From assembly GCF_018320785.1 (NCBI RefSeq), contig NC_054879.1, forward strand, positions 26,520,546 to 26,584,545: a stretch of 64,000 nucleotides of DNA, given 5' to 3'. Origin of the DNA: Cheilinus undulatus. Its lineage: Eukaryota. This document shows positions 8,690 through 63,916 of the stretch, piece after piece; position 1 is the stretch's first letter; every line of letters begins with the position of its first letter. The position numbers and the translations under genes are program-made. A model generated the notes under the pieces. It searched no databases, was not told where the DNA came from, and saw only the letters and a list, made by a program, of their open reading frames with translations.

Positions 8690-8900
8690 CTGCTATATTA
8701 TGTTGTTATTTGGAAAACAACCCGTCAATTTTGTCAGTTAACGTTGACGTGACGCAGCTACGTAATGGGACGTTAGTGCTGTTTACAGTGCAGGTCATTG
8801 TGTTTTGTTAAAAGTTCAACTATTTATAAAAGTGGCACATAACCTGCCTGGTTTGAGGATCTGTTTCCGCGTTAGTTTGCCAACGGCCCAGTTTTTTTTT
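8690..8900. promoter_or_regulatory. Candidate PARP4 promoter or untranslated first-exon region, possibly bidirectional
   Basis: It lies upstream of the acceptor-bearing first coding exon. Two TGACGT CRE-like half sites fall in gttgacgtgacgcagctacgtaa near 8745-8765. TATAAAA is at 8826-8832. Candidate donors are CAG|GTCATT at 8794 and CGC|GTTAGT at 8871. Confidence 0.25.
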
Positions 8901-9090
8901 TATCTGTGTGGGTGTGTCTGTTCAATTGAAACTATCTTACATCACTTTTACAATGTACTCTGGTGAACTACATATGAATATCATGGCATTATGGGCATGT
9001 AATGCCTCCAAGAGAGAGAGAAAAGGGGCTGACAACTATCGTTTCTTCCGAAATAACTCCTATGTCTGGGTGTGTCCTCTCTTCGCAGGC

Positions 9091-9216
9091 ATGGCAGTGT
9101 TTGAGAACTGTTCTGTCTTCCTAGACCTGAATAATATACCTTTTAAGAAGAGGAGGAAGCTGAAGGCAGCAGTCACAGACAATGGAGGAAGCCTTTCCTA
9201 TGTGATCAATAAACAG
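9091..9216 (+). CDS. parp4: PARP4 coding exon 1 (start codon; BRCT N-terminus): MAVFENCSVFLDLNNIPFKKRRKLKAAVTDNGGSLSYVINKQ
   Basis: Polypyrimidine tract and AG acceptor at 9087-88, ATG at 9091, donor GTCAGA at 9217. Matches the human PARP4 N-terminus MVMGIFANCIFCLKVKYLPQQQKKKLQTDIKENGGKFSFSLNPQ. Phase 0. Confidence 0.82.
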
Positions 9217-9589
9217 GTCAGAGAAAGGGATCATTTTCTATTTTCTGAGTGTGATGTAACGGTATAAAAATCTCAATAACACCTTGGTAACAAGTCCATG
9301 GTACAGTGTTTAGCTGAGGATCTGACCAGGGTTAACATAGTTATGATGTTGTTATTTTTAAAAACAGCACTTTTCAGCTGAAATAGTGCTGTTTACAGCT
9401 TATTCCCTACTGATCACTCATCCATTCTTCAACTCAGCGGCTGGAACAGCTCAATCAATCAAACAAGACAATTTGATGAAAACACATAACAAGCTATACT
9501 GTGGCACCAGCGGGTTTACTAAACTTCTATAACCTTTGTTGTCCACCACAAAGATAACCTGAGTTAATACAAAATGTAATTTTTAAATG

Positions 9590-15879: not shown

Positions 15880-17270
15880 TGTTTTTTAAAACTTGCATTT
15901 TATATTCATATGGAAAAATAAAAAACCAAGAATAAGATATAAGTTGCTTCAGAGCATTAAAGAAAAGGGTGGACTAAATTTACCTAATATTAAAAAATAC
16001 TACTGGGCATCCCAACTAAGAGCACTAAAAGTATGGATTGATAAGGAGCTTGAGACAGGATGGAGGGAAATGGAGCAAAATTCATGCCCTAAAATGCCCC
16101 TAGAGTCTTTACCATTTGTAACAAAGAAAATACAAAATGATTTAAAAATTAAAAATGAATGGATTAAAGGAACATTAAAAATTTGGACAATAATAAAAAG
16201 AAAGCTAAGAATGTCTGATTCAATCTGCAGGGCCACTAAAATAGCATTAAATCCAGACTTTATACCCTCAATGGAAGGAGGATTCTACAAATGGAAAGAG
16301 AAGGGACTGATATACACTGGATAGCTTTTTGAAGGTGAACATATTAAATCTTTTGAACAGTTAAAAAACGAATTTAGCTTAAATGTACAAGATTTTTATA
16401 AATTTTTACAAATTAGAAATTACCTTACTAAACATAAGGAATGGGAGTATATCTGTAAGAAACCAAAATACTGTGAAGAATTATTAATGACAAATTCATG
16501 TAATACTAAAAAGATTATCTCAAAAATGTATAAAGCCCTGCAGGTTGAATCAGAAGACAACAATCTTGATATTAAGGACAAATGGGAGAAAGAGAGAAAT
16601 ATAATAATTTTAGAGGAAAACTGGGAGGAATCATTTAAAGTAGGACAGAAATTATTAAATAGTATTTCATGGTGAGAGTTTGAATGGAAATCAAAAATGC
16701 AATATTTTATTGTTCCAACTGATACATCAAAATACAATGGAAGATCTGACAAATGCTGGAGGGGCTGTGGTCAGACAGGAGACTATGCACATATATTTTG
16801 GGACTGTCCCATAATTAAAGAATACTGGGACAATGTAAAAAGTAAGATTGAAGATATTTGCAAGGAGAAATTGAATTTGGATTTACAATTATTCTTACTA
16901 GGCATTATACCAAAATCTATATCATTAAAAAATAGGAAAATTATTTTAATTCTGAGTACAATAGCAAAAAAAACTATAACTGTTTCCTGGCTAAAACCAC
17001 AGCCTCCCAGTGTGGATTACTGGTGGGAAAGGGTTAATGAAGTGATGGACATGGAAAGAATGACGGCTAGATTGCAGTTTAAATTGAAGAAATTTGAAGA
17101 GTTATGGTCACCTGTAATACAGGAGACAAAAAACTGACATATACCCTACATTACTTATTTATTATTATTATTATTTTTATTTTATTTTATATTATTATTA
17201 TTATTATTATTGTTATTATTTTATTTTATTATTACTATTTTTTTGTGTGTGTGTCTTTTTTTATTGTTTA
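15880..17270 (+). mobile_element. L1-type LINE 3' fragment (ORF2 C-terminus with Cys-rich CWRGCG..HIFWDCP motif) with (ATT)n tail
   Basis: ORFs 15893-16324 and 16697-17137 resemble the L1 ORF2 C-terminus (FIWKNKKPRI..., CWRGCGQTGDYAHIFWDCP). The fragment ends in a microsatellite tail at 17151-17260 and lies in a PARP4 intron. Confidence 0.75.
17151..17260. repeat. (ATT)n/(TTA)n microsatellite (L1 tail)
   Basis: ttattattattattatttttattttattttatattattattattattattattgttattatt... Confidence 0.9.
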
Positions 17271-22829: not shown

Positions 22830-23880
22830 TGATGACAAGCAGTGCTGCCATGGGTCACCATGGAGAAGCGGAATGGAAATGTAAAAGAACCCTACAAGGA
22901 AAAACTATTTTTACACAAAGCAAATGTATTTCAAGAAATTGTGGAGGACTACTACAGTACACTTGTACTAGAAATGTTAAGGTATCCTTTTCTTTAATAA
23001 TATATTACATTGGCCATTAAAATAACATTTTTTTCTCCACTTGGGGGAAAAAGTATCCGATTTCTATTTGGAATTCCTGCTAGATTATAGGATCTGCTAT
23101 GGCAGTCTTTAATACAGCAGCACTCCCCTACCATGTGGATTTTCTGAAGTTATCAAGCCAACACAATGGGTAAATAACAAAGAAAGTATAGGTCAGCTCA
23201 GACTACACAAATTCAGCCAGTTTCTGACCCAAACGCAGCGTCGTAGCTCATTGGCAAACCTCGGGCCTGAATGTGCTTATCGGGCATGACAAATGGACTT
23301 GCAGTGTGACATAATCAACAACGCATCCAAGACGCCCCTCAACCACAACTCAACGAGACGAGTATGTCAGAATTTCTTTTGCATCATTGCTTACTTTGAC
23401 ACCCTGACCTGATGTCCACAACATTAATCCTGACATCTACCAATGGGAGAGCATTTGCTCTTATATTTGTTACTATTTACCAGAGTGATATTAAACAGGT
23501 CCCCACTTTTTCTCCCTCTGGGGATTTATTTCATACAGTTGGCTTTTGTTTTGAGATTTTTGACAACTCCAAACAGACTTTTATGTGTTTTGCACTGTGG
23601 CAAAGCTCCTGCCTAACCCCTCTCCCAAAAAGCCCAGATTGGTGGAGGGCTGCAGTGATGGTTGTCCTTCTAGAAATTTATCCCATCTCCACACAGGATC
23701 TCTGGAGCTCAGTCAGAGTGACCATCAGGTTCTTGAACACCTCTCTTACTAAGACCCCTCTCCTCCAATTTCTAAGTTTGTCCGGGCAACCAGCTCTTGG
23801 AAAAGTCCTGGATGTGCCAAACCTATTACATTGGAGAATTGTGGAGGTCACTGTGAATAGTTAAATAAATGTGATATTTC
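22830..23880 (-). mobile_element. Degraded Tc1-like element remnant
   Basis: Reverse complement of 23690-23740 encodes KNLMVTLTELQS, the Tc1 transposase N-terminal motif. ORF 23412-23864 is its antisense artefact. Confidence 0.5.
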
Positions 23881-24808: not shown

Positions 24809-24994
24809 GTTAGCAGCACAGTTTTTGTGTTCAGTGCATGAAACCAGCCTTCAAAACAGACTTTTTAGACAAAAACAAAGTAAGCCAAAGTGATTTTAAG
24901 AACATGCTTACCAGTAAAAATGACATCAAACCATTATCACACAGCCATCTTTAGGCGTTATGACCTTTTTCTTTTTTTTTTAATCAATCCACAG

Positions 24995-25178
24995 GACTAG
25001 TGTGAAATACTCTAAACCCAGCGCGACAGACGGCTCTCGGCTGGTGCTTGTGTGCGATGTGGCATTGGGAAAGTGCATGGATCTCTACAAAAAGGACTTC
25101 ATGCTGACCAAGGCTCCTGAGGGACACAACAGTGTGCATGGTGTTCGCATTACCCGTGGCAATTGTTCTCAGTTTCTG
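24995..25178 (+). CDS. parp4: PARP4 exon (catalytic): RTSVKYSKPSATDGSRLVLVCDVALGKCMDLYKKDFMLTKAPEGHNSVHGVRITRGNCSQFL
   Basis: Acceptor ccacAG, donor ctg|GTACGA. Matches human STSIKYSHPGETDGTRLLLICDVALGKCMDLHEKDFSLTEAPPGYDSVHGV. Confidence 0.9.
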
Positions 25179-25297
25179 GTACGAAATGAGCATCAAGCAT
25201 TATGAAACACATGCTTGTATTATTTAGCTCTAACTACTACTGTATACCGAACATTTCGGCTTGTATGTGAACATGTGAAATCCTCCTTGTGCTGCAG

Positions 25298-25436
25298 GAT
25301 GATGAGTTTGTGGTGTACAGCCCTGATCAGGTGAAGCTGAAGTATTTGGTGCAGTTTACTGTGGAGGGAGACCACCTAAAGGAGTTTAGTCCTGTCATCA
25401 ACACCTCAGCTGAGCGTGTCCTCTCTAATAAGCAAG
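25298..25436 (+). CDS. parp4: PARP4 exon (catalytic Glu; end of PARP domain): DDEFVVYSPDQVKLKYLVQFTVEGDHLKEFSPVINTSAERVLSNKQ
   Basis: Acceptor ctgcAG, donor caag|GTAAGC. Matches human DDEFVVYKTNQVKMKYIIKFSMPGDQIKDFHPSD. Ends in phase 1. Confidence 0.9.
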
Positions 25437-25546
25437 GTAAGCAACAAACACATACAGAATACCTTTATGTATCATTCTCATAAGGATTTCTATGCATGCA
25501 AACAAGCCTTGTGTCATTTTATTTACTTTATAAGAGCTTAGGTCAG

Positions 25547-25677: not shown

Positions 25678-25769
25678 GTGACAAAAAGCAGGAAAGTTCA
25701 GTTGTCACAGAAAGTGCTGGTGTTTGCTGGCTTGATTTGAAGTTATGACACTGTAATCTTCTTTTTCAG

Positions 25770-25901
25770 GTCATTATTTTCCAAAAATACACCAATCAGA
25801 GTGCTGTGCCTATTGAGGCAAAATACGTCTTCCCGTTGGATGATTCTGCAGCAGTATGTGGGTTTGAAGCCTTCATCAATGGCAAACATGTGATTGGACA
25901 G
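25770..25901 (+). CDS. parp4: PARP4 exon (VIT): VIIFQKYTNQSAVPIEAKYVFPLDDSAAVCGFEAFINGKHVIGQ
   Basis: Acceptor ttttcAG, donor cag|GTAACT. Matches human VIVFQTYTNKSHVPIEAKYIFPLDDKAAVCGFEAFINGKHIVGE. Confidence 0.92.
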
Positions 25902-26590
25902 GTAACTCATCTTTCTCAGCATGCATTTCTTTCTGTATCTTTTTCTCATGTATTCATTTTCTTTGTGTTGCTGTTAAATCTGCTTCATGAGATTCACTTC
26001 TATATGTTTTGTCCTTCCTAAAGTTGGCTAGTGGGACAAATATGTTAGTATTATGGCTGTTTCAGAATGCTTGTTTGAGTACCAGGTCTGTTTACTTTCA
26101 TTTCATGTTTGCTGTAACAGACAAGACATGTCAGAAAATTTGGGTTTTTCTGTGTTTGACAGATGAATCTTAAACAATGCATTTAACCACTGTGACACAA
26201 GCCCATTGTGCACCAAACCCCAATGTGTGCAAAGGTTTGAAGGCCTGTTCAGTGCTGCTTGCAGCCCTGGTTAGCTTTGTATTTTGTCACATTAAATTTT
26301 GAGTTACCTTTTGCCATTACCAATCTGTATGAGGATAACATCAATTTTAACAAACTGAATCAGTAAATTTTAGTTTTATTTTCCAATCTTTCTTTCCTAC
26401 TTGAACATATGGTGAGCTGGTATTGACTGGCTGCCGTTTTTTATTGGCTGTTCAATGGTGAGACTTCTTTTTCAGCAAGTCATTCTATACTTAGTGTCTC
26501 AAACATTGTCCACCTAGCCAAACTAAACCTAAATGATTGAAGATTTCCACACTGATTCAACTCTGTTGTTTGTGTGTGTTTGGGCCTCAG

Positions 26591-29945: not shown

Positions 29946-30036
29946 GTCTTCTCACCTGTCTTTTTGTCCTCCTTTCTCTTTCTCTTAAGCTGGGTTCCTT
30001 CTCTGATCCTTTCCCATTTACTGTTTTCTTCAACAG

Positions 30037-30226
30037 GCCTGCATGTTGGTTTTCTATCCGAATTTTGAGGTTGACAACAGTTCTGGATTTGAGGAAGTCG
30101 TCCTTTTGATCGATACATCTGAGTCCATGAAAGGAGAGTCTCTCCGCATGGCCCAGAAAATCGCCCTGCAGGCTCTCAAAACCCTCAGCCAGTATCTAAG
30201 AATTAACATCATTTTATTTGGCACAG
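30037..30226 (+). CDS. parp4: PARP4 exon (vWA domain start, MIDAS DxSxS): ACMLVFYPNFEVDNSSGFEEVVLLIDTSESMKGESLRMAQKIALQALKTLSQYLRINIILFGT
   Basis: Acceptor caacAG, donor acag|GTCAGT. Matches human ACMLVFQPDLDVDLPDLASESEVIICLDCSSSMEGVTFLQAKQIALHALSLVGEKQKVNIIQFGT. Ends in phase 1. Confidence 0.9.
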
Positions 30227-30689
30227 GTCAGTTTAACCTTTTTCAATGCTACACTGTGAGAAAATGTGAAACTGTCCCACTGTTTAAAGGGAAACTAAAA
30301 ATCAAAGAATTAAGTCAGGTTGCAATAATCAGCAGTTCTTTGTTTCTGTTACATTAACTAAAAGTCTGATAAACTGGCAGCGGACTCGGGCTGCTAATAG
30401 TTCCAAAAGTGTTTATCATTTGCACTAGTGATATTCAAGCAAAATCATGCCAGTGAACTTTTCCTGCTCCACGCAGCTCTTGTTTTGTGTCTGCATCTTC
30501 CTTCTGCACAAATCTGCGTTCTCATGCTAACACAGCACAGTTTCATCCACCTGAAGATGATGAGTTTAAAGAGGAGAAACAGTGTGATGGTTTTTATTTT
30601 GATGCAAGATTTTAATAATATAATATGAATTTCACCATTTAAAATAAAGATTCATCCCTTTATGTAGCCAGCAAGAGCAAGAATAAACC

Positions 30690-41028: not shown

Positions 41029-41139
41029 GATGTTGGTTTTGGCTTATTTAGCTCTGATGAAAATGATGAAGATGACATGGGAATGTTTGTAACCTGTTCT
41101 ACGAAAGTGGAGTCATACTCGCCCCAGTATGAACCCACG
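41029..41139 (+). CDS. parp4: PARP4 exon (acidic linker): DVGFGLFSSDENDEDDMGMFVTCSTKVESYSPQYEPT
   Basis: Acceptor ttacAG, donor acg|GTTAGT. Phase 0 on both sides. Sequence is lineage-specific but frame-consistent. Confidence 0.7.
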
Positions 41140-47050: not shown

Positions 47051-47390
47051 CACTGTGTGTAAATTGGAAGATAACCCTTTGTTTAAACTTGATTTAACAA
47101 GCTTTGAGCATTACGAACTTAAGGCACATTATTGCAAATAATAATAATAATGGTGCATAGGCCACAACCAACTTCTTGGATGAAAAGTGGTTTGAAAAAT
47201 GCAACTGTTCTCCAGATTTTATGGTTACTTTTACCTTACTGAGTTCTTCAATTACTCTTCATTTTTGTGGGACCTCCTTGGAACCAGGTAACAACCAGGT
47301 TAACATGAATTTATAGATGGAATGATAGCATTTATTTGAAAACAGATTTAGTGTCTACAGTGAGCTTATTGTGACTTCGTTTTCTTTTTT

Positions 47391-47395
47391 GTGTG

Positions 47396-47428
<33 letters not shown>
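47391..47428. repeat. (GT)n microsatellite abutting the 3' splice site of the large PARP4 exon
   Basis: gtgtgtgtatgtgtgtgtgggtgtgtgtgtgtgtgtgt ends 12 bp before the acceptor AG at 47439-40. Confidence 0.9.
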
Positions 47429-47440
47429 CCTCTGTTGTAG

Positions 47441-48948
47441 AGTCCCATCTGCAACTCAATGAAAATGTCTAAGAAAATCATGCCTGAAGAGGAGATTGGA
47501 GAGTGTGCTGAGTACATGGCTGAGTTTTCTTCAAGTTGGTCTTCTGTAGAAGAGAGTGCTGAAATCATGGAACAGTCTGACCAGGAATTATGCTTCATCT
47601 CTCCTCAACTTGAATTTTTGACCAACCCGACTGAAGTTGAGTTGAGTGATGTATGGGCCGAAACACTTAATCCTCTTCTCGAGAGTCGTAGGCTCCAACA
47701 AGGGTATAGTTCTCCTCTTTACCCCACTGGTCCTCAGGGCATAGCATTTGGTGGTCCTCCAAGTCCTGTCCTAAGTGATCTTCGAGCCAAAGGTGACATA
47801 CCTAGGTCTTCCTCTACTTTGTTTTCAAGCAGGGCACTGGATGGTCCTCCCCCGCCACCTCCTCCTCCTTCTAAATCCACTAAATTTAAGGGCCAAGCAT
47901 TTGGCGTACATACTCCTCCTCCTCCTCCTACTGGTCCTCCAGTCAGATCAATTGATCGTTTTCCTCCACCTCCTCCTCTTTGCGGTCCGCCTCCTCCTCC
48001 TCCTACTGCCGCTGTAACGAAGGGCCCAGCATTTGGCAGACAACCTCTTCCTCCTTCTCCCCCCACTGGTCCTGCAATCAGATCATTTGCTCGTCCACCT
48101 CCTCTTCCTGGAGTTCCTCTCCCTTCCAATGCTCTGCCATTTAGAGCATTTGGCCATCTTCCACCTCCTCAGATTGGGGGTCCTCCCCCTCATTCCCCCT
48201 TCACTGGTCTGTCATTTGCTGGTACTCCTCCTCCCCATCCTCCTTTAGCATTTGGTGGTCCTCTCCCTCCTTTCCTTGATGGTTCATCTCATCCTCACCC
48301 TCTCAGTTTTAAGGCCAACTTTTTTGATAGTCATGAAAGTGCTGGACCAATTATGTTTGGTTCACCCCTCAATCTTTCATATAGATCACTTGCCGTTGAG
48401 GATCCTGAACTTTGCACTGCCAGCTCTGTTATTAAACATGACAAGTCCCCTGCTGCAGAGAAATCTCCAGAAGGTGCTGACATCTTGCTACCAGCTAGTA
48501 ATGAGATTACACCAACACAGGCTGAAAGAAGTCTAAGGAGAAAAATCTCCACTTCTTTAGTTCGTGGAGGCTTGTTCGGTGCAACAGCACCCTTTAGCTT
48601 TGAGAGCAGCAAACCAAGCTATGTAACCCAGCAGAAACAGCAGTCAGGTTTCAGTTTCAGGTGCTCCGAGGTTGAAGCAGACTTGCAGCAAGAAGAACGC
48701 TTCCAACGAGATGAACAAGAACCAAGTATGCGTAAGCTAAAGAAGAAAAGTGCAAAAATGATTGATTTGTGTGCGGAGGAACTTGTAAATGAAAATGAGC
48801 CTTCACCAGAGGAAGATTCATCTGACTCAGAAATAACATATGGATCTAGGGAAGGGTTCGGCATAAGGAGTGGCATAAGGAGTGGCGGCATACGCCGTTC
48901 AACTTTCAAGTCACAGCCACGGAAGCATCTGAGGATTGCACGCTCCGT
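47441..48948 (+). CDS. parp4: PARP4 large exon (~503 codons): acidic N-terminus, polyproline tandem repeats (FH1-like), Ser/Glu-rich C-terminal part
   Basis: Acceptor ttgtAG|AGTCCC sits directly after a (GT)n tract. There is a 1.5-kb open frame (six-frame ORF 47459-48952). Donor tccgt|GTAAGT uses the G of the frame's terminal GTG-TAA, so the stop is spliced out. Ends in phase 2, which the next exon needs. This corresponds to the large proline-rich exon of human PARP4. Confidence 0.82.
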
Positions 48949-49558
48949 GTAAGTCCACTACTTATCTAGACAGTTACTTAAAAATTTTGCAAAGCTTTGG
49001 TAGCCAGAATGACAAAAAGCTAGGTAACCTGAATGTTCATTAAGTGATGGATTCGTCTTTGTGTGTAAGTTTATCCAACAGTGCTTATTAAAGACATTTG
49101 TCAAATGTGAAGATTTTTGTCTGTATGTATTTTAGATTTAAAGGGGACATATTATGCAAAAAACACATTTTCAGGCTTTTCTAGCAAAAAATATGTGCCC
49201 CTGGCCTGTCCACAATCCCCTAAAGTCCCCTCAAGTACCTGATCCTCCTCTCAGCTGGCAGCTGAGAGGAGGATCAGGCGAGCCACAGCCATTTCCTGAG
49301 AGGGGCAGAGTCAGACAGCTCAGTAACATTTAAAGCCACAGACACAGAAACAGCTCATTCTAGGCAGGGCTGAAAAAAAGGGGGGTTTAGACAAAAAAAA
49401 ATCCTTTACTAGAGTGTCTTTTCAGCAACAGACTTCACAGCCATGTTTTTGAGACCTCTGAGACCAATATTAACTTTTCTGAAAAGGGTAAAATATGTCC
49501 CCTTTAAACACATTTTATACTTTCAGGGATATTCATGTAATGTCCTGTCATATTTCAG

Positions 49559-49625
49559 GGAAGAGTCAGCAGATTCTGAGGCACTGAAGGTTAGATGGAC
49601 CAAGATCTTCCAGCTGCAGCATTTA
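49559..49625 (+). CDS. parp4: PARP4 exon: VEESADSEALKVRWTKIFQLQHL
   Basis: Acceptor atttcAG, donor tta|GTAAGA. 1-nt entry phase completes the GT left by the large exon. Comparable to human ...HWQDAVPWTELLSLQTE. Confidence 0.68.
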
Positions 49626-49940
49626 GTAAGAAAAGATCAGATTTTATTGTCTTCATTTAAATGTTGCTAACTAAAACTCCTTCCCCTTTGAAAAGATTAT
49701 AAATTAACCTTGAAAAGTTTGGGCCTTCCCAAACACTTTCTGTGGGAGCTCTCTAGATGAATGTGAAATAAACCCATGCAGTGGATATAAAAACTAATTT
49801 GTAAATGACATACTCAGATGGAGTTTGAAAATATGAACAACAAACACACAAGATAAACTACAAAAACAAGCTTAATTAAAATAGAATACAATCAAATTTT
49901 TAAAGGAATTAAATCATAAACTTTTTTTTCTCTGTTGCAG

Positions 49941-50043
49941 GATGGCTACTGGGAGATAACCAAAGAGCTGGGTGATTTAATAAATGTGGATGTGGACCTG
50001 TTTGCCAACGTTTTCCTGAAAAACAAAGGCATCAACTCTCTTG
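49941..50043 (+). CDS. parp4: PARP4 exon (vault/MVP-interaction region): DGYWEITKELGDLINVDVDLFANVFLKNKGINSL
   Basis: Acceptor tgttgcAG, donor cttg|GTAAGA. Matches human DGFWKLTPELGLILNLNTNGLHSFLKQKGIQSL. Confidence 0.85.
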
Positions 50044-50124
50044 GTAAGAACTCTGAAATCCTTTTCAGGCCGCAGACTGGAATCTAATAATAGAACCTTA
50101 ATGTAATAAGACGTTAACCTTGCA

Positions 50125-50628
50125 AAGCAGATGGATACGCCTGTTTTGTTTTTTTCACTGGCGAATCTATCTTGCAAAGCTCCCATCTGAACCATTTGGG
50201 CTAGAGAGTGGGTTAGAAAGTACTTTCAGGCGCAGCAGAGTCGTGATGCAAACAAGCAGCAGCAAGAGCTGGTGCAATTAAAGAGGAAGAGATTAGCATG
50301 AATGCTACTAAAGCACCAGTTTTATCTGAACTTGACGAAATTTCTTCGTTAAAAGAAGAACAAAGAACAGCAGTGAGCCGTCTTCTTTTCAAAAACGACA
50401 AAAGTCAACTACTTACATGTCTATAGTCGCCATGGTTCGTGTTATTCCTCAGTAGCTGCACACGCGCAGCTCGATAGTGGCTACGTCACGTGTTTTGTTG
50501 CTCTGATTGGCTTATAGAGATGTGACAGATAGAAAGTTCACCCAGTCACAGTCACAGTTTTTTTCAAAGCCTCTGCCTTTTCTCAAACGTTCCCTATTGA
50601 AGCTTTCCCAGATGGCATGTCAGGTCAA
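50125..50628 (+). repeat. Dispersed ~0.5-kb repeat, copy 2 (PARP4 intron)
   Basis: Colinear with 36155-36703 and in the same orientation. Confidence 0.8.
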
Positions 50629-51597
50629 TAAGACGTAGCGTTAGTTCATTAAGGACATGGAAGTCATATGCCCAGCTGTGATCAGCTGATGGCCTGCTGA
50701 TCCCAATTATCATTTTCTAGCCGTCTGCTTTATAGTCTAAACTTTTTTTTGCACCCTCATATTCTGTTTGATGCTACTACTACAAACTAATCTTCACTGA
50801 TTCAATATGCATTGCCATAGATGTATCTAGCTTTATGGGGGTTTCTAGTTATGTGCTCCCTGAAAAGTCAAAGCATGCTGCTTGACTAACCCAGGTAGCA
50901 TCTTTTTGAGCAGAACCTTCTCCACCAAGTAAAACTGCATACCCCTTATGCAAATTAAATGTACGATGAGGGTGTTCCCGACTGAAAAACTTCAGATCCT
51001 GCAATTAAGACAGATGTATTCGAGTGATGCATGATATTGGATTTTTGCCAATATCCAAATTCCTGATTTTCTTTTCCATCATCACTTTGGCCTCACTGGG
51101 TTATGCCAAGCTGTGTCACGAATCGTCCTGGTCTGGAGCTGAGCCCAAGCATGCCAGCCCTGCCTCCAGACATGCTTTGGTCACAACCATGCACCAAATA
51201 AAATACATGCCGGACTACTAAGAAGGAGAAACTTTAAGTAAAAGCAATGGCCAACTCTTAAACAAAACAATGCTTACTGAGAACAAAAATGTTTGTTTCT
51301 ATTGATACTATTTATCATTTTAAGCTAATATCTGCCTTTGCTGATGTTATGAGCACACTAACATTTAGGTCTGTTTACAGTATGCAGTGTATATTGTCCA
51401 AGTATGTAGCTGTCACTAACTGAATATGTGGTTTCCAACACACCTTATTTTAAAAAGGACAAAAGAAAGCTGATTTACTGGGCTAGCTGTCTCATGAATA
51501 TAACACCTGTTAAATATATATCTCAGTTTGATTTCTACCTTTAGTTTTCACCAGTTCTCATCAACACTGAAAGCTAATTTTTGTCTGTACAATGAAG

Positions 51598-51730
51598 GTG
51601 TGACGGCCCGTGACAACATCCTGAGGTTGGTGGCGACCCTGCTGGTTCTACAGTTAATGAGGGTGGAGAAGCTGGAGGAAGGAAAACTTCTCCGCACCCT
51701 CTTCAGTCTGTACGACTCATCTCAGCCCAG
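51598..51730 (+). CDS. parp4: PARP4 exon (C-terminal MVP-interaction region): GVTARDNILRLVATLLVLQLMRVEKLEEGKLLRTLFSLYDSSQP
   Basis: Acceptor aatgaAG, donor cccag|GTCTGT. Matches human GVKGRECLLDLIATMLVLQFIRTRLEKEGIVFKSLMKMDDPSISR. Confidence 0.87.
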
Positions 51731-54122
51731 GTCTGTTCAAACCTGAAAAAAATGTGTATAAATAGTGTGTCATGATGTTTAATTCCTCACTGAATCTAAA
51801 CAGAATTGTGTCAGCCCCATTTAAGTGGGATTCAGTTAGTTAATGTGGTGTCTGTAGCAGCAAGAAGTTGTTGAAAAATGCTCAATATAATGTTTTTAGA
51901 ATTGAACATAAAGGCTTGAATATTGAGAAGAAAATCTCCCCTGTTAAAGGAAGAACTACAAATACAAGCACAATAATTTTTGTATGTATAGGAAGTCATT
52001 TTTAAACTTGACTTTTGTTAACCCCAAGTTTTCGTGAGAGAAAAAGAAGATTACTGTCAGAACTGTGCAAATACTTTTGCAACCCTCCTTCCTCTACAGC
52101 CACTTGAGGTGATTGCGTTTCCACAAAGATGACCACACCTTACCGACAGTTCTGTCTGTCAAAGGTGGAAACATATGAAATACTTACCATCCACAGTTAT
52201 AATATATAATATAAAGCGCTTTAAAAGCTCAGTTAGAAGGCGGGCTCAAGTCGAGCCAGATTTGCACTCAGACATAATACACATCTTCACTTTCTGATTG
52301 GTTATATACTGTATGTTACATGTGTGGCCAGTTTTGCTGTCAAGAATTGCACAAAATTCCCGGTTGTATTTGTTGTGGTTTAATGATGCTCACTGTCAGA
52401 TTGTATGTGCATTTTTAGGCTTTATTATAAGCATAAATATTAGGTTATATTTATAAAACATGGAATTTCTCTGTTTATACATTGCTTTACTGTATTTTTT
52501 TTAAGCAACATCTACCAGAGACATCAGATGTTAATTATCCACTTGCTTTTATCTGGCATATTTACACTGTCTGGTCCTCTACTAGTATAGCTCATCTGCA
52601 GTCACATGATATTCTTCTGGTGATGATGGGGGAAGTAAATGTAGAACAACAGTCAAGGATCAATGGGAATGGAGGAAAGTTAGTATGTTGAAGCTCTAGG
52701 TGGACCTGTATGCTGCAGTTATCATCAGAACATTTCTACATACATCAGGTATGATCCCTAGACCAGTGTTTCCCAACCATTTTTCCTTGAAGCCCCCCCT
52801 ACATGCACCTAAGAAAAGCAGAGCCCCCCCAGGACCCAAAAGTGAAGAAAAAGTGACACACTGACACCAAAAATCAACAAAGATTTGAATTGTTTCAATG
52901 ATAAAACCCTAAAAAAAGGCCTATGAATGTTTTTATTATCTAAAGACCTTTGCATAAACTACTTACTAACTATTTTATCAAGGTTTTAGTCAATATTTGC
53001 ACATCTATTTTTGGCAGCCTCAAAGCAGACAAAGCCTCACGCCCCCCCTTGAGATCTTTGCCTAGACTTTATAAAAAAATGGGATTTTTCTAATGTGTTA
53101 TCCAATTTACCTGGAGTGGATATGATTAATGTAACAGATGATACCTCTATGATATCTAGCTAGATGAAGGAAGACAAGTCTTCAGCAGTCCCTTTAACAG
53201 CTTTTCTCCCTTGTGTTTCCATAAATACACTTTAAATGGAAACACTGGTATACCATTATGCAAATAAACTTCATGGGGTAAGTGACCGAGTGATGGTTTG
53301 TCCTTCACAAACAAGCTGGTTTAGAATGACAGGAGCTGAGGGAGCCAGTTTCCTTTTTTCCATTTTTGATTTTATTTAATGCACATTAAAAAAAAGTCAA
53401 ACTGAGACTGCATCAAGAGCCATTTGGGAGACAGTAAACTGGCTTTTATTCCAGAGCTGAGCGAAATAATCCAAACCTTTAAAAGAGATTTCCCAGTGTA
53501 GTGAAAGAGGCTTGACAGACATCAGCTTAGAAATGCAAGCCGGATCAGGATTTACTGAACTAAACCAGCCCACTTGGTGGAAACTAACCACACACAGATG
53601 TCTGACACCACTCCTCCAGAAGGTAGATGGAGGCTTTTTTTCCATGTCTGCCACTATTCCTCTGCGAGCTTTTAAAGTTTTTCCTGAATATGTCAATACT
53701 TTGGGGACTCAAAAAATAAGCACAAAGGTTTTTTGTTTTTTTTTTCTAGCATCTTGCTGAGTTACAGAGCCATTAGCAGCCTAGAAACTTTGTTGTTTGG
53801 TAGAGCTTCTCCATGCAAATATTACTTCCTTTCCCACATCTGAGGTTTTTTGCTGGGACATGATGTCATCTGCATATAACCCTTTGTTCAATTATGCTTT
53901 TTCTCTTTTAAATATACAGTATTATTCAACCATTTCAGAACTTAACTGCCATTGTATTTGTGCTATGTAGCCAGCGTTGATGAGTTTTCAAGCAGTTTTT
54001 GTGATTAAAATTTAAAAAATAATAAAGGTATTGATAGTAGAACATTAAAGCTTAAAATATGGGTTCATAAGGGCCCAACTCACCATACTCTTCCATTTTT
54101 GATAACTTCTGTTTCCCTCTAG

Positions 54123-54330
54123 GTCCAAGCGCTGGGAGGCGTTAAAGAAGGCAGTGGACTGGGTTTGCTGGGCTGATCGTCAGTACCCCTGCATCTACAG
54201 CCGGCTGGAGTTTGGTTTGAGCTGGGAATCCTCCACCCGTCAGCTGCTGGGATACGAAGCCCTCCCTCCCTTCTCTCCCCTCACCGGTCTGAACCTGCAG
54301 AAGACCCCTGTCCCTCTGCTTGTCCACTGA
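54123..54330 (+). CDS. parp4: PARP4 terminal coding exon: RSKRWEALKKAVDWVCWADRQYPCIYSRLEFGLSWESSTRQLLGYEALPPFSPLTGLNLQKTPVPLLVH*
   Basis: Acceptor ccctctAG, TGA stop at 54328-54330. Matches human NIPWAFEAIKQASEWVRRTEGQYPSICPRLELGNDWDSATKQLLGLQPISTVSPLHRVL. Confidence 0.87.
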
Positions 54331-63260: not shown

Positions 63261-63722
63261 TTTGTTGATGTTTTTTGTTTTCTGTACATTATTGACCCTA
63301 ACACATTGTGAATACATTAAACTGTCTATACTTTAAAAGGCTTACATCCTGGAGGCAGTATAAAGAAAGAAATTCTCCACTACTGCAGATATGTATGACA
63401 GTATAAGAGTCCAAAGAAACAAAAACATACAGTATTAATTAATATTTGTTTTTCTGTAGTTGTCAGGTGATATAAACATGTTGTTTTGAACAGATTGCCA
63501 TGTAGTCAGCCTTTTTTGCCGTTCAAGTCTCCATGTTGTTGCTTGACTAAAAGCTTTGTATCAGACTCCAAGTGAAATAAAAGCCTAACAATCCTGTTTA
63601 CACATCTATAAAACCCAGATCCTAGATCGAATTAGATGTTCAGGATGGTCTTGGACACAATTTTTTGTGAGTGTTTTCTTCTTTTCTGCTCTGTAATGTT
63701 ATTTTTTCATCATGTTTCACAG

Positions 63723-63865
63723 AGAAAACTTGCCCTGCAGGATGGGTGATGTTCCAGTGTTCCTGTTATCTCTTTTCAACACAAAAAACCTCTTGGGACA
63801 GAAGCAGGCGAGACTGCAGAAACAGAGACGCAGATCTTGTGGTCATTGACAGTTCTGAGGAACAG
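63723..63865 (+). CDS. C-type lectin exon 4, first exon of the C-type lectin domain (CTLD): KKTCPAGWVMFQCSCYLFSTQKTSWDRSRRDCRNRDADLVVIDSSEEQ
   Basis: Acceptor tttcacAG, donor cag|GTAATG. This is the canonical CTLD opening CPxGW...CY.FS....W..S...C...A.LVVI.S.EEQ. The gene continues past the window end. Confidence 0.85.
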
Positions 63866-63916
63866 GTAATGTGTTTTTTGTGGAGTTTTCCTCATCAAAA
63901 TCACAGTTTATAGCCA

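Follow-up and report, generated by a model that had tools for sequence, protein, structure and literature searches.

A proline-rich tandem duplication in the largest PARP4 exon of Cheilinus undulatus, the teleost counterpart of a hypervariable disordered linker

The PARP4 locus and its largest exon

A stretch of 64,000 nucleotides (nt) from Cheilinus undulatus (contig NC_054879.1, positions 26,520,546 to 26,584,545, forward strand; hereafter the window) was analysed for a long proline-rich exon at 47441-48948. Judged from sequence matches, the gene that carries it is PARP4 (vault PARP), extending on the plus strand from approximately 9 kb to 54.3 kb. In upstream plus-strand exons, Pfam searches detected the PARP catalytic (ART) domain (PF00644; 42.6 bits, cut-off 26.7) at 24984-25202, its last strand (21.5 bits) at 25271-25480, and the VIT domain (48.6 bits, cut-off 26.5) at 25749-26018. 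VWA_3 reached 26.3 bits (cut-off 27) in a single partial exon at 30007-30354, and a weak BRCT_2 match (18.1 bits, below the cut-off of 27.3) was found in one exon fragment at 8857-9264. A Sardina PARP4-like protein was mapped to window exons at 34.2-40.9 kb.

Protein homology searches with the exon gave a single strong relative, P0001, the 485-amino acid (aa) product of a 2654-nt Logan contig (L001, run SRR19345933) from a sister species. L001 is collinear with five window exons and holds no introns, and was therefore treated as a spliced transcript. The 1508-nt exon is 65-70% identical to P0001/L001. The C-terminus of P0001 is annotated as PF26156 (PARP4_MVP-ID), and the window exons at 49559-54330 are 96% identical to the annotated part. 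In a Pfam scan of P0001 itself PF26156 was not matched; the MVP-binding domain of P0001 matched human PARP4 residues 1571-1715 with E=1e-29 (PDB 9bw6/9bw7/11jf, structures of vault-PARP4 from cryo-electron microscopy). The assignment to PARP4 made in the original prediction thus agrees with the PARP and VIT matches upstream and the MVP-binding domain exons downstream.

The reading frame from 47441 (plus strand) is open for 503 codons and was the longest in a plus-strand scan of the window. The preceding in-frame codon is a TAG that holds the acceptor AG (47439-47440), and the donor is GTAAGT at 48949. The frame continues into the exon at 49559 (...RIARS-V-EESADSEALKVRW...) only when 48948 (phase 2) is taken as the last base; use of the GT two bases before 48949 as donor leads to a stop codon. 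The predicted exon coordinates are therefore exact, with an open frame, AG/GTAAGT sites and fitting phases. That the region is a single coding exon was borne out by the spliced contig of the sister species, which spans its 3' 940 nt and continues into the downstream exons; the 5' part lies outside the contig. Canonical AG/GT sites were found throughout the four exons downstream of 48948. On the 5' side, a junction between 41139 and 47441 would be compatible in phase (phase 0 on both sides), which makes 41029-41139 a candidate for the preceding exon. Coordinates are collected in Table 1.

Table 1. Features of the PARP4 linker exon and its surroundings, in window coordinates
Feature	Coordinates	Strand	Basis
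Candidate preceding exon, DVGFGLFSSDENDEDDMGMFVTCSTKVESYSPQYEPT, ends ...SPQYEPT, phase 0, donor GTTAGT	41029-41139	+	inferred
(TG)19.5 microsatellite, intronic, ends 12 nt before acceptor AG 47439-47440	47390-47428	+	Tandem Repeats Finder, sequence
Largest PARP4 exon, 1508 nt, start phase 0, end phase 2, predicted disordered linker of ~502 aa	47441-48948	+	open frame, AG/GTAAGT
Proline-rich core, aa 89-290, 32% proline, [A/S]F[G/A] motifs alternating with runs P3-P8	47705-48310	+	
Antisense Gly-rich open reading frame, 131 aa, mirror of CCN codons, not a gene	47734-48129	-	
Repeat unit 1, aa 138-182, PPPPPPSKSTKFKGQAFGVHTPPPPPTGPPVRSIDRFPPPPPLCG	47852-47986	+	repeat search, alignment
Repeat unit 2, aa 183-227, PPPPPPTAAVTKGPAFGRQPLPPSPPTGPAIRSFARPPPLPGVPL	47987-48121	+	repeat search, alignment
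Degenerate AFG/PPP units RAFGH-LPPP, GG-PPPHSP, LSFAG-TPPPHPP, LAFGG-PLPP	48122-48310	+	
Distal linker half, Ser/Glu/Lys-rich, FG/FSF motifs, acidic EEDSSDSE patch	48311-48948	+	
Next exon, start of MVP-binding domain, EESADSEALKVRWTKIFQLQHL	49559-49625	+	tblastn of P0001, junctions
MVP-binding domain exon	49941-50043	+	tblastn of P0001, junctions
MVP-binding domain exon	51598-51730	+	tblastn of P0001, junctions
Last PARP4 coding exon, stop TGA 54328-54330	54123-54330	+	tblastn of P0001

The (TG)19.5 microsatellite occupies the expected place of the polypyrimidine tract and branch point of the 1508-nt exon. The tract at 47390-47428 resembles the TG(m)T(n) tract of CFTR that precedes exon 9 and promotes TDP-43-dependent skipping. 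Because 1508 is not divisible by 3, skipping of the 1508-nt exon would shift the frame, with loss of the vault-anchoring domain.

Polyproline core, tandem duplication and evolutionary rate

Four polyproline runs lie within 53 residues (aa 136-188): P8 at aa 136-143 (47846-47869), P5 at aa 159-163 (47915-47929), a second P5, preceded by F, at aa 175-179 (47963-47977), and P6 at aa 183-188 (47987-48004). Of 82 proline codons, 53 (65%) are CCT and are arranged as imperfect trinucleotide arrays, (CTC)n/(TCC)n. The proline-rich core has a GC skew of -0.45 at a GC content of 0.53-0.57.

Two repeats of about 40 aa had been predicted here. They were recovered as a head-to-tail duplication of ~135 nt/45 aa, which is real and exceeds low-complexity noise. 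Direct DNA repeats were found between 47855-47928 and 47987-48060 (76%) and between 47914-47974 and 48049-48109 (80%), at a spacing of 132-135 nt; the right pair had been predicted, at positions off by about 20 nt. A gapped local alignment of 47846-47986 with 47987-48130 gave 97 identical positions out of 130 nt and three indels, all of them in frame. The DNA alignment scored 94 against 27.7 +/- 4.2 in 500 codon shuffles (z=15.8), and the protein alignment scored 117 against 56.5 +/- 8.7 in shuffled controls (z=7.0). Tandem Repeats Finder (minimum score 30) returned (CTC)n/(TCC)n microsatellites and a 12-nt duplication and did not report the 135-nt period, because two copies at 75% identity with indels remain below its threshold.

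Clearly homologous copies number two only. Further degenerate AFG/PPP units had been predicted downstream of them. These units do have the AFG motif in common, which is enriched in the exon (5 observed, 0.14 expected, p<0.0002); in a dot plot with 12-aa windows, the similarity of these later units did not rise above the local-composition null (maximum 58). The self dot plot placed its best true diagonal at offset 45, with a score of 56 that stays under the same null maximum.

A perfect 12-nt tandem duplication lies at 48860-48886 (GGCATAAGGAGT, 2.2 copies, encoding GIRSGIRSGGIR), where the sister species is shorter (GARVGLRSGRMRR); it is another small in-frame length change within the exon. 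The antisense open frame at 47734-48129 consists of reverse-complemented CCN codons, as the original prediction had it in calling the frame a mirror image, and an equivalent antisense Gly frame is also present in the Scomber contig L002.

For structure prediction, the spliced C-terminal 672 aa were modelled with AlphaFold2 using a 27-sequence alignment. Residues 1-505, which comprise the whole exon, were modelled without secondary structure, with predicted local distance difference test scores (pLDDT) of 33-63. Residues 510-650, corresponding to the MVP-binding domain, were helical at a pLDDT of 80-97 and served as internal positive control. The exon is thus predicted to encode an intrinsically disordered linker. 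In the teleost multiple alignment, conservation begins only with the MVP-binding domain, whose first residue is W516; upstream of it the sequences could not be aligned except with P0001.

Ratios of nonsynonymous to synonymous substitution rates (dN/dS) were calculated between the window and the sister-species transcript L001, a single species pair at a synonymous divergence (dS) of ~0.11, by four methods including NG86 and LWL85. NG86 gave 1.55 (bootstrap 1.04-2.56) for the whole aligned linker and 2.55 for the proline-rich part. With the doubtful first 13 codons of L001 excluded, the four methods ranged over 0.94-1.78 for the linker (aa 187-502) and 1.10-2.25 for the proline-rich part. For the MVP-binding domain NG86 gave 0.17 and the four methods 0.16-0.25, at 96% aa identity. 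The linker thus evolves at or above the neutral rate, with a dN/dS of about 1 or higher (any excess over 1 being suggested by one species pair only), in contrast to the MVP-binding domain. At protein level this contrast recurred in other pairs: between Dissostichus and Trematomus, the linker was 79% identical with 86 gap positions and the MVP-binding domain was identical at 157 of 157 residues.

FG dipeptides occur 8 times in the exon, against 2.0 expected (p=0.0006), and the candidate preceding exon at 41029-41139 reads DVGFGLF. FG-nucleoporin-like repeats were considered for this enrichment. A constrained FG motif is not claimed, because only three of six comparable sites are kept in the sister species.

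The linker exon in the sister species and in other teleosts

The sister-species transcript starts inside repeat unit 1 and holds the tail of that unit together with unit 2 (133 of 144 nt identical). Since the two copies in the window differ by 25% and the orthologous units 2 of the two species by only 8%, the duplication is probably older than the separation of these species. At polyproline sites, FPPPPP is replaced by FSAVNS and GPPPPPP by DLPPPRPP. Within the first 13 codons of L001, 8 of 15 nt differ exactly at the FPPPPP codons, compared with a divergence of ~8-15% elsewhere in the exon, and FSAVNS is either a real micro-replacement or the product of an unreliable contig end. The contig opens (L001 1-60) with what we take to be a Nextera adapter remnant, TATAAGAGACAG.

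The whole-exon protein homology search returned P0001 only, its candidate list being saturated by polyproline words. Besides P0001, an exhaustive search of representatives yielded just one weak low-complexity match, P0002, and a homology search with the non-proline N-terminal 135 aa of the exon found nothing. PARP4 linkers of other teleosts were found to carry repeats of several kinds. In Scomber japonicus, FLGSSHPPPPPPPP is repeated five times, with DNA periods of 48 nt (4.4 copies, 88% matches) or 87 nt (2.4 copies, 96%) in one open exon, and in Dicentrarchus labrax the unit SIGAPIVGQSFSYDPSSPPPxPPP has a period of 78 nt (2.7 copies, 89%). Each of these two arrays lies inside one open reading frame, consistent with an equivalent large exon; the frames that carry them (at least 199 aa in Scomber, at least 298 aa in Dicentrarchus) are much shorter than the 502 aa found here. 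Poecilia mexicana has VVSGAPPPPFPGAILAPP units and Culter has runs of P8, P6 and P7. Linkers of Sinocyclocheilus grahami (P0027; MSDRLPPPAAY three times), Trematomus bernacchii (P0009; an internal duplication of ~200 aa) and Sardina pilchardus (P0032; acidic AESDEEETYENVEKT repeats) hold other repeat types, so that repeat turnover is not confined to polyproline. The Megalops linker is FG-rich without polyproline. Runs of at least five prolines are absent from many teleost linkers, including the sister-species transcript, Megalops and Sardina.

Repeat type, period and number thus vary between lineages, and expansions in the PARP4 linker exon are recurrent and independent among teleosts. The lineage-specific expansion proposed in the original prediction is in line with this: the 135-nt repeat is specific to the lineage, common to the window and one sister species and unalignable with other teleosts, which carry different linkers.

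Public gene models break or fuse at the linker exon, as seen among P0016, P0036, P0037, P0028 and L003. PARP4 of D. labrax is split into models of 1340 aa and 458 aa (L003 1-9258). A linker fragment of P. mexicana is named 'formin-like protein 20' by the NCBI pipeline. The MVP-binding domain is fused to a C-type lectin in Trematomus, to a TAAR receptor in Neolamprologus and to Ig domains in Cirrhinus.

Elsewhere in the window, the start of a C-type lectin domain (PF00059; 18.4 bits, below cut-off) was found on the plus strand at 63671-63910, ~9 kb past the PARP4 stop. In D. labrax a Lectin_C gene lies just downstream of PARP4 as well (L003 12547-15258), so the PARP4/lectin neighbourhood appears conserved. 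Within a PARP4 intron, three long plus-strand open frames in a row (144, 116 and 153 aa) at 15890-17134, with a simple AT-rich repeat behind them, resemble the remains of a retroelement; a Pfam search of the intronic open frames at 15890-17134 and 23400-23861 matched no family.

Interpretation and comparison with known systems

The hypervariable disordered exon is the part of PARP4 that evolutionary analysis has singled out in mammals and birds. A region of ~360 aa, wholly contained in the largest PARP4 exon (human exon 30), was described as almost entirely disordered (Daugherty et al. 2014, PMC4038475). Human-rhesus dN/dS was 1.75 in this region versus 0.63 for the whole gene, the largest exon was variable in sequence and length among vertebrates, and signatures of positive selection were found in primates, bats and birds (PMC4038475). 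The region corresponds to the intrinsically disordered segment between the ITIH-like region and the MVPID (Suskiewicz et al. 2023, PMC10450202). In the vault-PARP4 structure, the C-terminus of PARP4 is anchored close to the vault waist, and within the lumen its folded domains are connected by long disordered stretches (PMC12280208). In teleosts the 1508-nt exon corresponds to human exon 30, a known hypervariable disordered linker, and by framing the exon without it the original prediction missed its main context.

The linker has no detectable similarity to the human sequence, since a phmmer search of PDB sequences with the exon gave only chance matches (E>1) and none to human PARP4. Human PARP4 had been predicted to lack regular polyproline blocks, and this is so for residues 1391-1570, the 180 residues before the MVP-binding domain, which contain 9.9% proline and no run longer than PP. 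Fish PARP4 and proline repeats are not mentioned in the Daugherty paper or its supplementary text, and the searchable literature covers mammals and birds; in that literature the polyproline/AFG repeat content of the teleost linker has not previously been described.

The exon is probably best explained as a hypervariable disordered tether whose proline-rich modules were generated, under constraint that is weak or diversifying, by duplication and by slippage of CCT codons; the most that polyproline would do is stiffen and extend the tether. In this view it links the folded body of the protein (BRCT, WGR/HD-ART and the VIT-VWA ITIH-like region) with the MVP-binding domain at the C-terminus, by which PARP4 is anchored on the inner vault wall. 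The AFG...PPPP modules then arose by in-frame tandem duplication of ~135 nt together with slippage of CCT-codon runs, and duplications by unequal exchange, with periods between 48 and 135 nt, are seen across lineages. Polyproline would then provide an extended, stiff spacer in polyproline II (PPII) conformation, with at most opportunistic docking sites, and the presence of a long flexible linker would matter more than its exact sequence.

Current understanding of PARP4 is not overturned by these results. The teleost exon behaves as in mammals and birds, being predicted disordered, evolving near or above the neutral rate and varying in length, so that a known pattern is extended to fish. In addition, a mutational route is identified, comprising CCT-codon slippage and in-frame tandem duplications with periods that differ by lineage. 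Because the linker exon breaks or misleads automated annotation, as with the split Dicentrarchus model and the Poecilia 'formin-like protein 20', annotators should expect such errors.

Four observations count against the tether explanation. First, dN/dS exceeds 1 in the proline-rich part (1.1-2.3 by method), which could mean selection for change instead of a mere lack of constraint; a recognition interface would suit this better than an inert tether would. Second, FG dipeptides across the teleost PARP4 linkers (P0001-P0033) number 41 against 14.4 expected, which hints at constraint at the sequence level. Third, polyproline runs of at least five residues recur in about ten teleost fragments and could reflect selection, not mutation bias alone. 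Finally, transcript coverage does not extend to the acceptor or to the exon's 5' 500 nt.

A host-pathogen recognition interface under recurrent positive selection, with adaptive repeats, has been proposed for mammals and would also account for the first of these points. A linker dN/dS of 1.4-1.8 in three of the four methods, the NG86 bootstrap interval above 1, the like pattern and model published for primates, bats and birds (PMC4038475) and the recurrent, lineage-specific turnover of repeats are all in its favour. The rate estimate comes from a single pairwise comparison, however, in which LWL85 gives 0.94, so that neutrality is possible, and dS may be depressed in CCT-rich sequence. A pathogen partner is known in no species. 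Such an interface is compatible with a tether and does not exclude it; as the explanation of the exon it is rather unlikely.

The original prediction had read the polyproline runs as a signature of formin FH1 and WASP/VASP-type tracts. On that reading the runs are functional short linear motifs that dock profilin, EVH1, SH3 or WW domains and couple PARP4 or vaults to actin regulators. Four runs of 5-8 prolines within 53 aa would suit such a role, as would the motif content of the exon: a sole FPPPP (EVH1-core) motif in unit 1 (aa 174-178, 47960-47974, preceded by D-R in DRFPPPPPLCG), one PPLP, and an SH3 consensus each of class I and class II. Several teleost linkers likewise contain polyproline runs, and the Poecilia fragment carries its formin-like name from NCBI. 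In mouse dendritic-cell lysates, GST-VASP-EVH1 pulled down Parp4 and Mvp, and an inhibitor of the FPPPP site abolished the pull-down; the authors list both proteins with hits that await future verification, neither having been known to interact before (PMC9581539).

Against docking, a Pfam search of the exon found no family even at E<=1, and neither FH2 nor another actin-related domain accompanies it. FPPPP occurs once, lacks an acidic C-terminal flank and is replaced by FSAVNS in the sister species, where P6 becomes LPPPRPP. In strict form it was found in 0 of the 38 teleost fragments examined, and many linkers have no run of five or more. When bound to vaults, PARP4 is inside the lumen (PMC12280208), where cytoskeletal partners have limited access. 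The FH1 resemblance is compositional only; the functional reading is not supported as stated, given the missing Pfam match and FH2, runs that are not conserved at a dS of ~0.1 and the 65% share of CCT among proline codons, in microsatellite-like runs. We infer that the linker is not a formin-type FH1 module, and consider docking motifs of this kind unlikely. Distinctly unlikely is the wider proposal that teleost PARP4 has repeatedly built polyproline modules as selected docking sites for host (profilin, Ena/VASP EVH1, SH3/WW) or pathogen proteins. If true, vault PARP would be tied to invaders or the actin machinery in a manner tuned by lineage, with the mouse EVH1 pull-down (PMC9581539) as a mammalian echo.

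That 47441-48948 is non-coding, whether as a CT-rich stretch of low complexity within an intron or as a pseudo-exon in decay that is open by chance, is close to refuted: low complexity, an opposite-strand mirror frame open for 131 codons and gene models that break at the linker exon in other fish could be cited for it, but the 503-codon frame is bounded by canonical acceptor and donor with phases that fit on both sides, in the sister species the spliced transcript runs in frame from the 3' 940 nt into the conserved MVP-binding domain exons, and every indel between the repeat copies is in frame.

Among known systems, Ena/VASP EVH1 ligands resemble the exon in one FPPPP core, preceded by D-R. 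Their class I motif, [D/E]FPPPPx[D/E][D/E], usually occurs in several conserved copies; here the core is single, has no acidic C-terminal flank and is absent from the sister species and the other teleost fragments. Formin FH1 regions share several polyproline tracts of 5-8 residues, short spacers containing Gly, Phe or Ala, and placement in a disordered segment. They differ in that the PARP4 tracts have no adjacent FH2, Pfam match or homology, are followed by more linker and then the MVP-binding domain, are not conserved between sister species, and belong to an ADP-ribosyltransferase of the vault lumen. Tracts formed by trinucleotide-repeat slippage are similar in their CCT-dominated imperfect (CCT)n arrays and in copy numbers and periods that differ by lineage; the exon departs from them in the duplication of a longer, 135-nt unit whose copies are 75% identical. 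Human PARP4 exon 30 is likewise the largest exon of its gene, lies directly before the MVP-binding domain exons, is predicted disordered and variable in length and sequence, and has a dN/dS of about 1 or more next to flanking domains under purifying selection. To this shared plan the fish exon adds its P5-P8 runs, AFG motifs and 45-aa tandem duplication.

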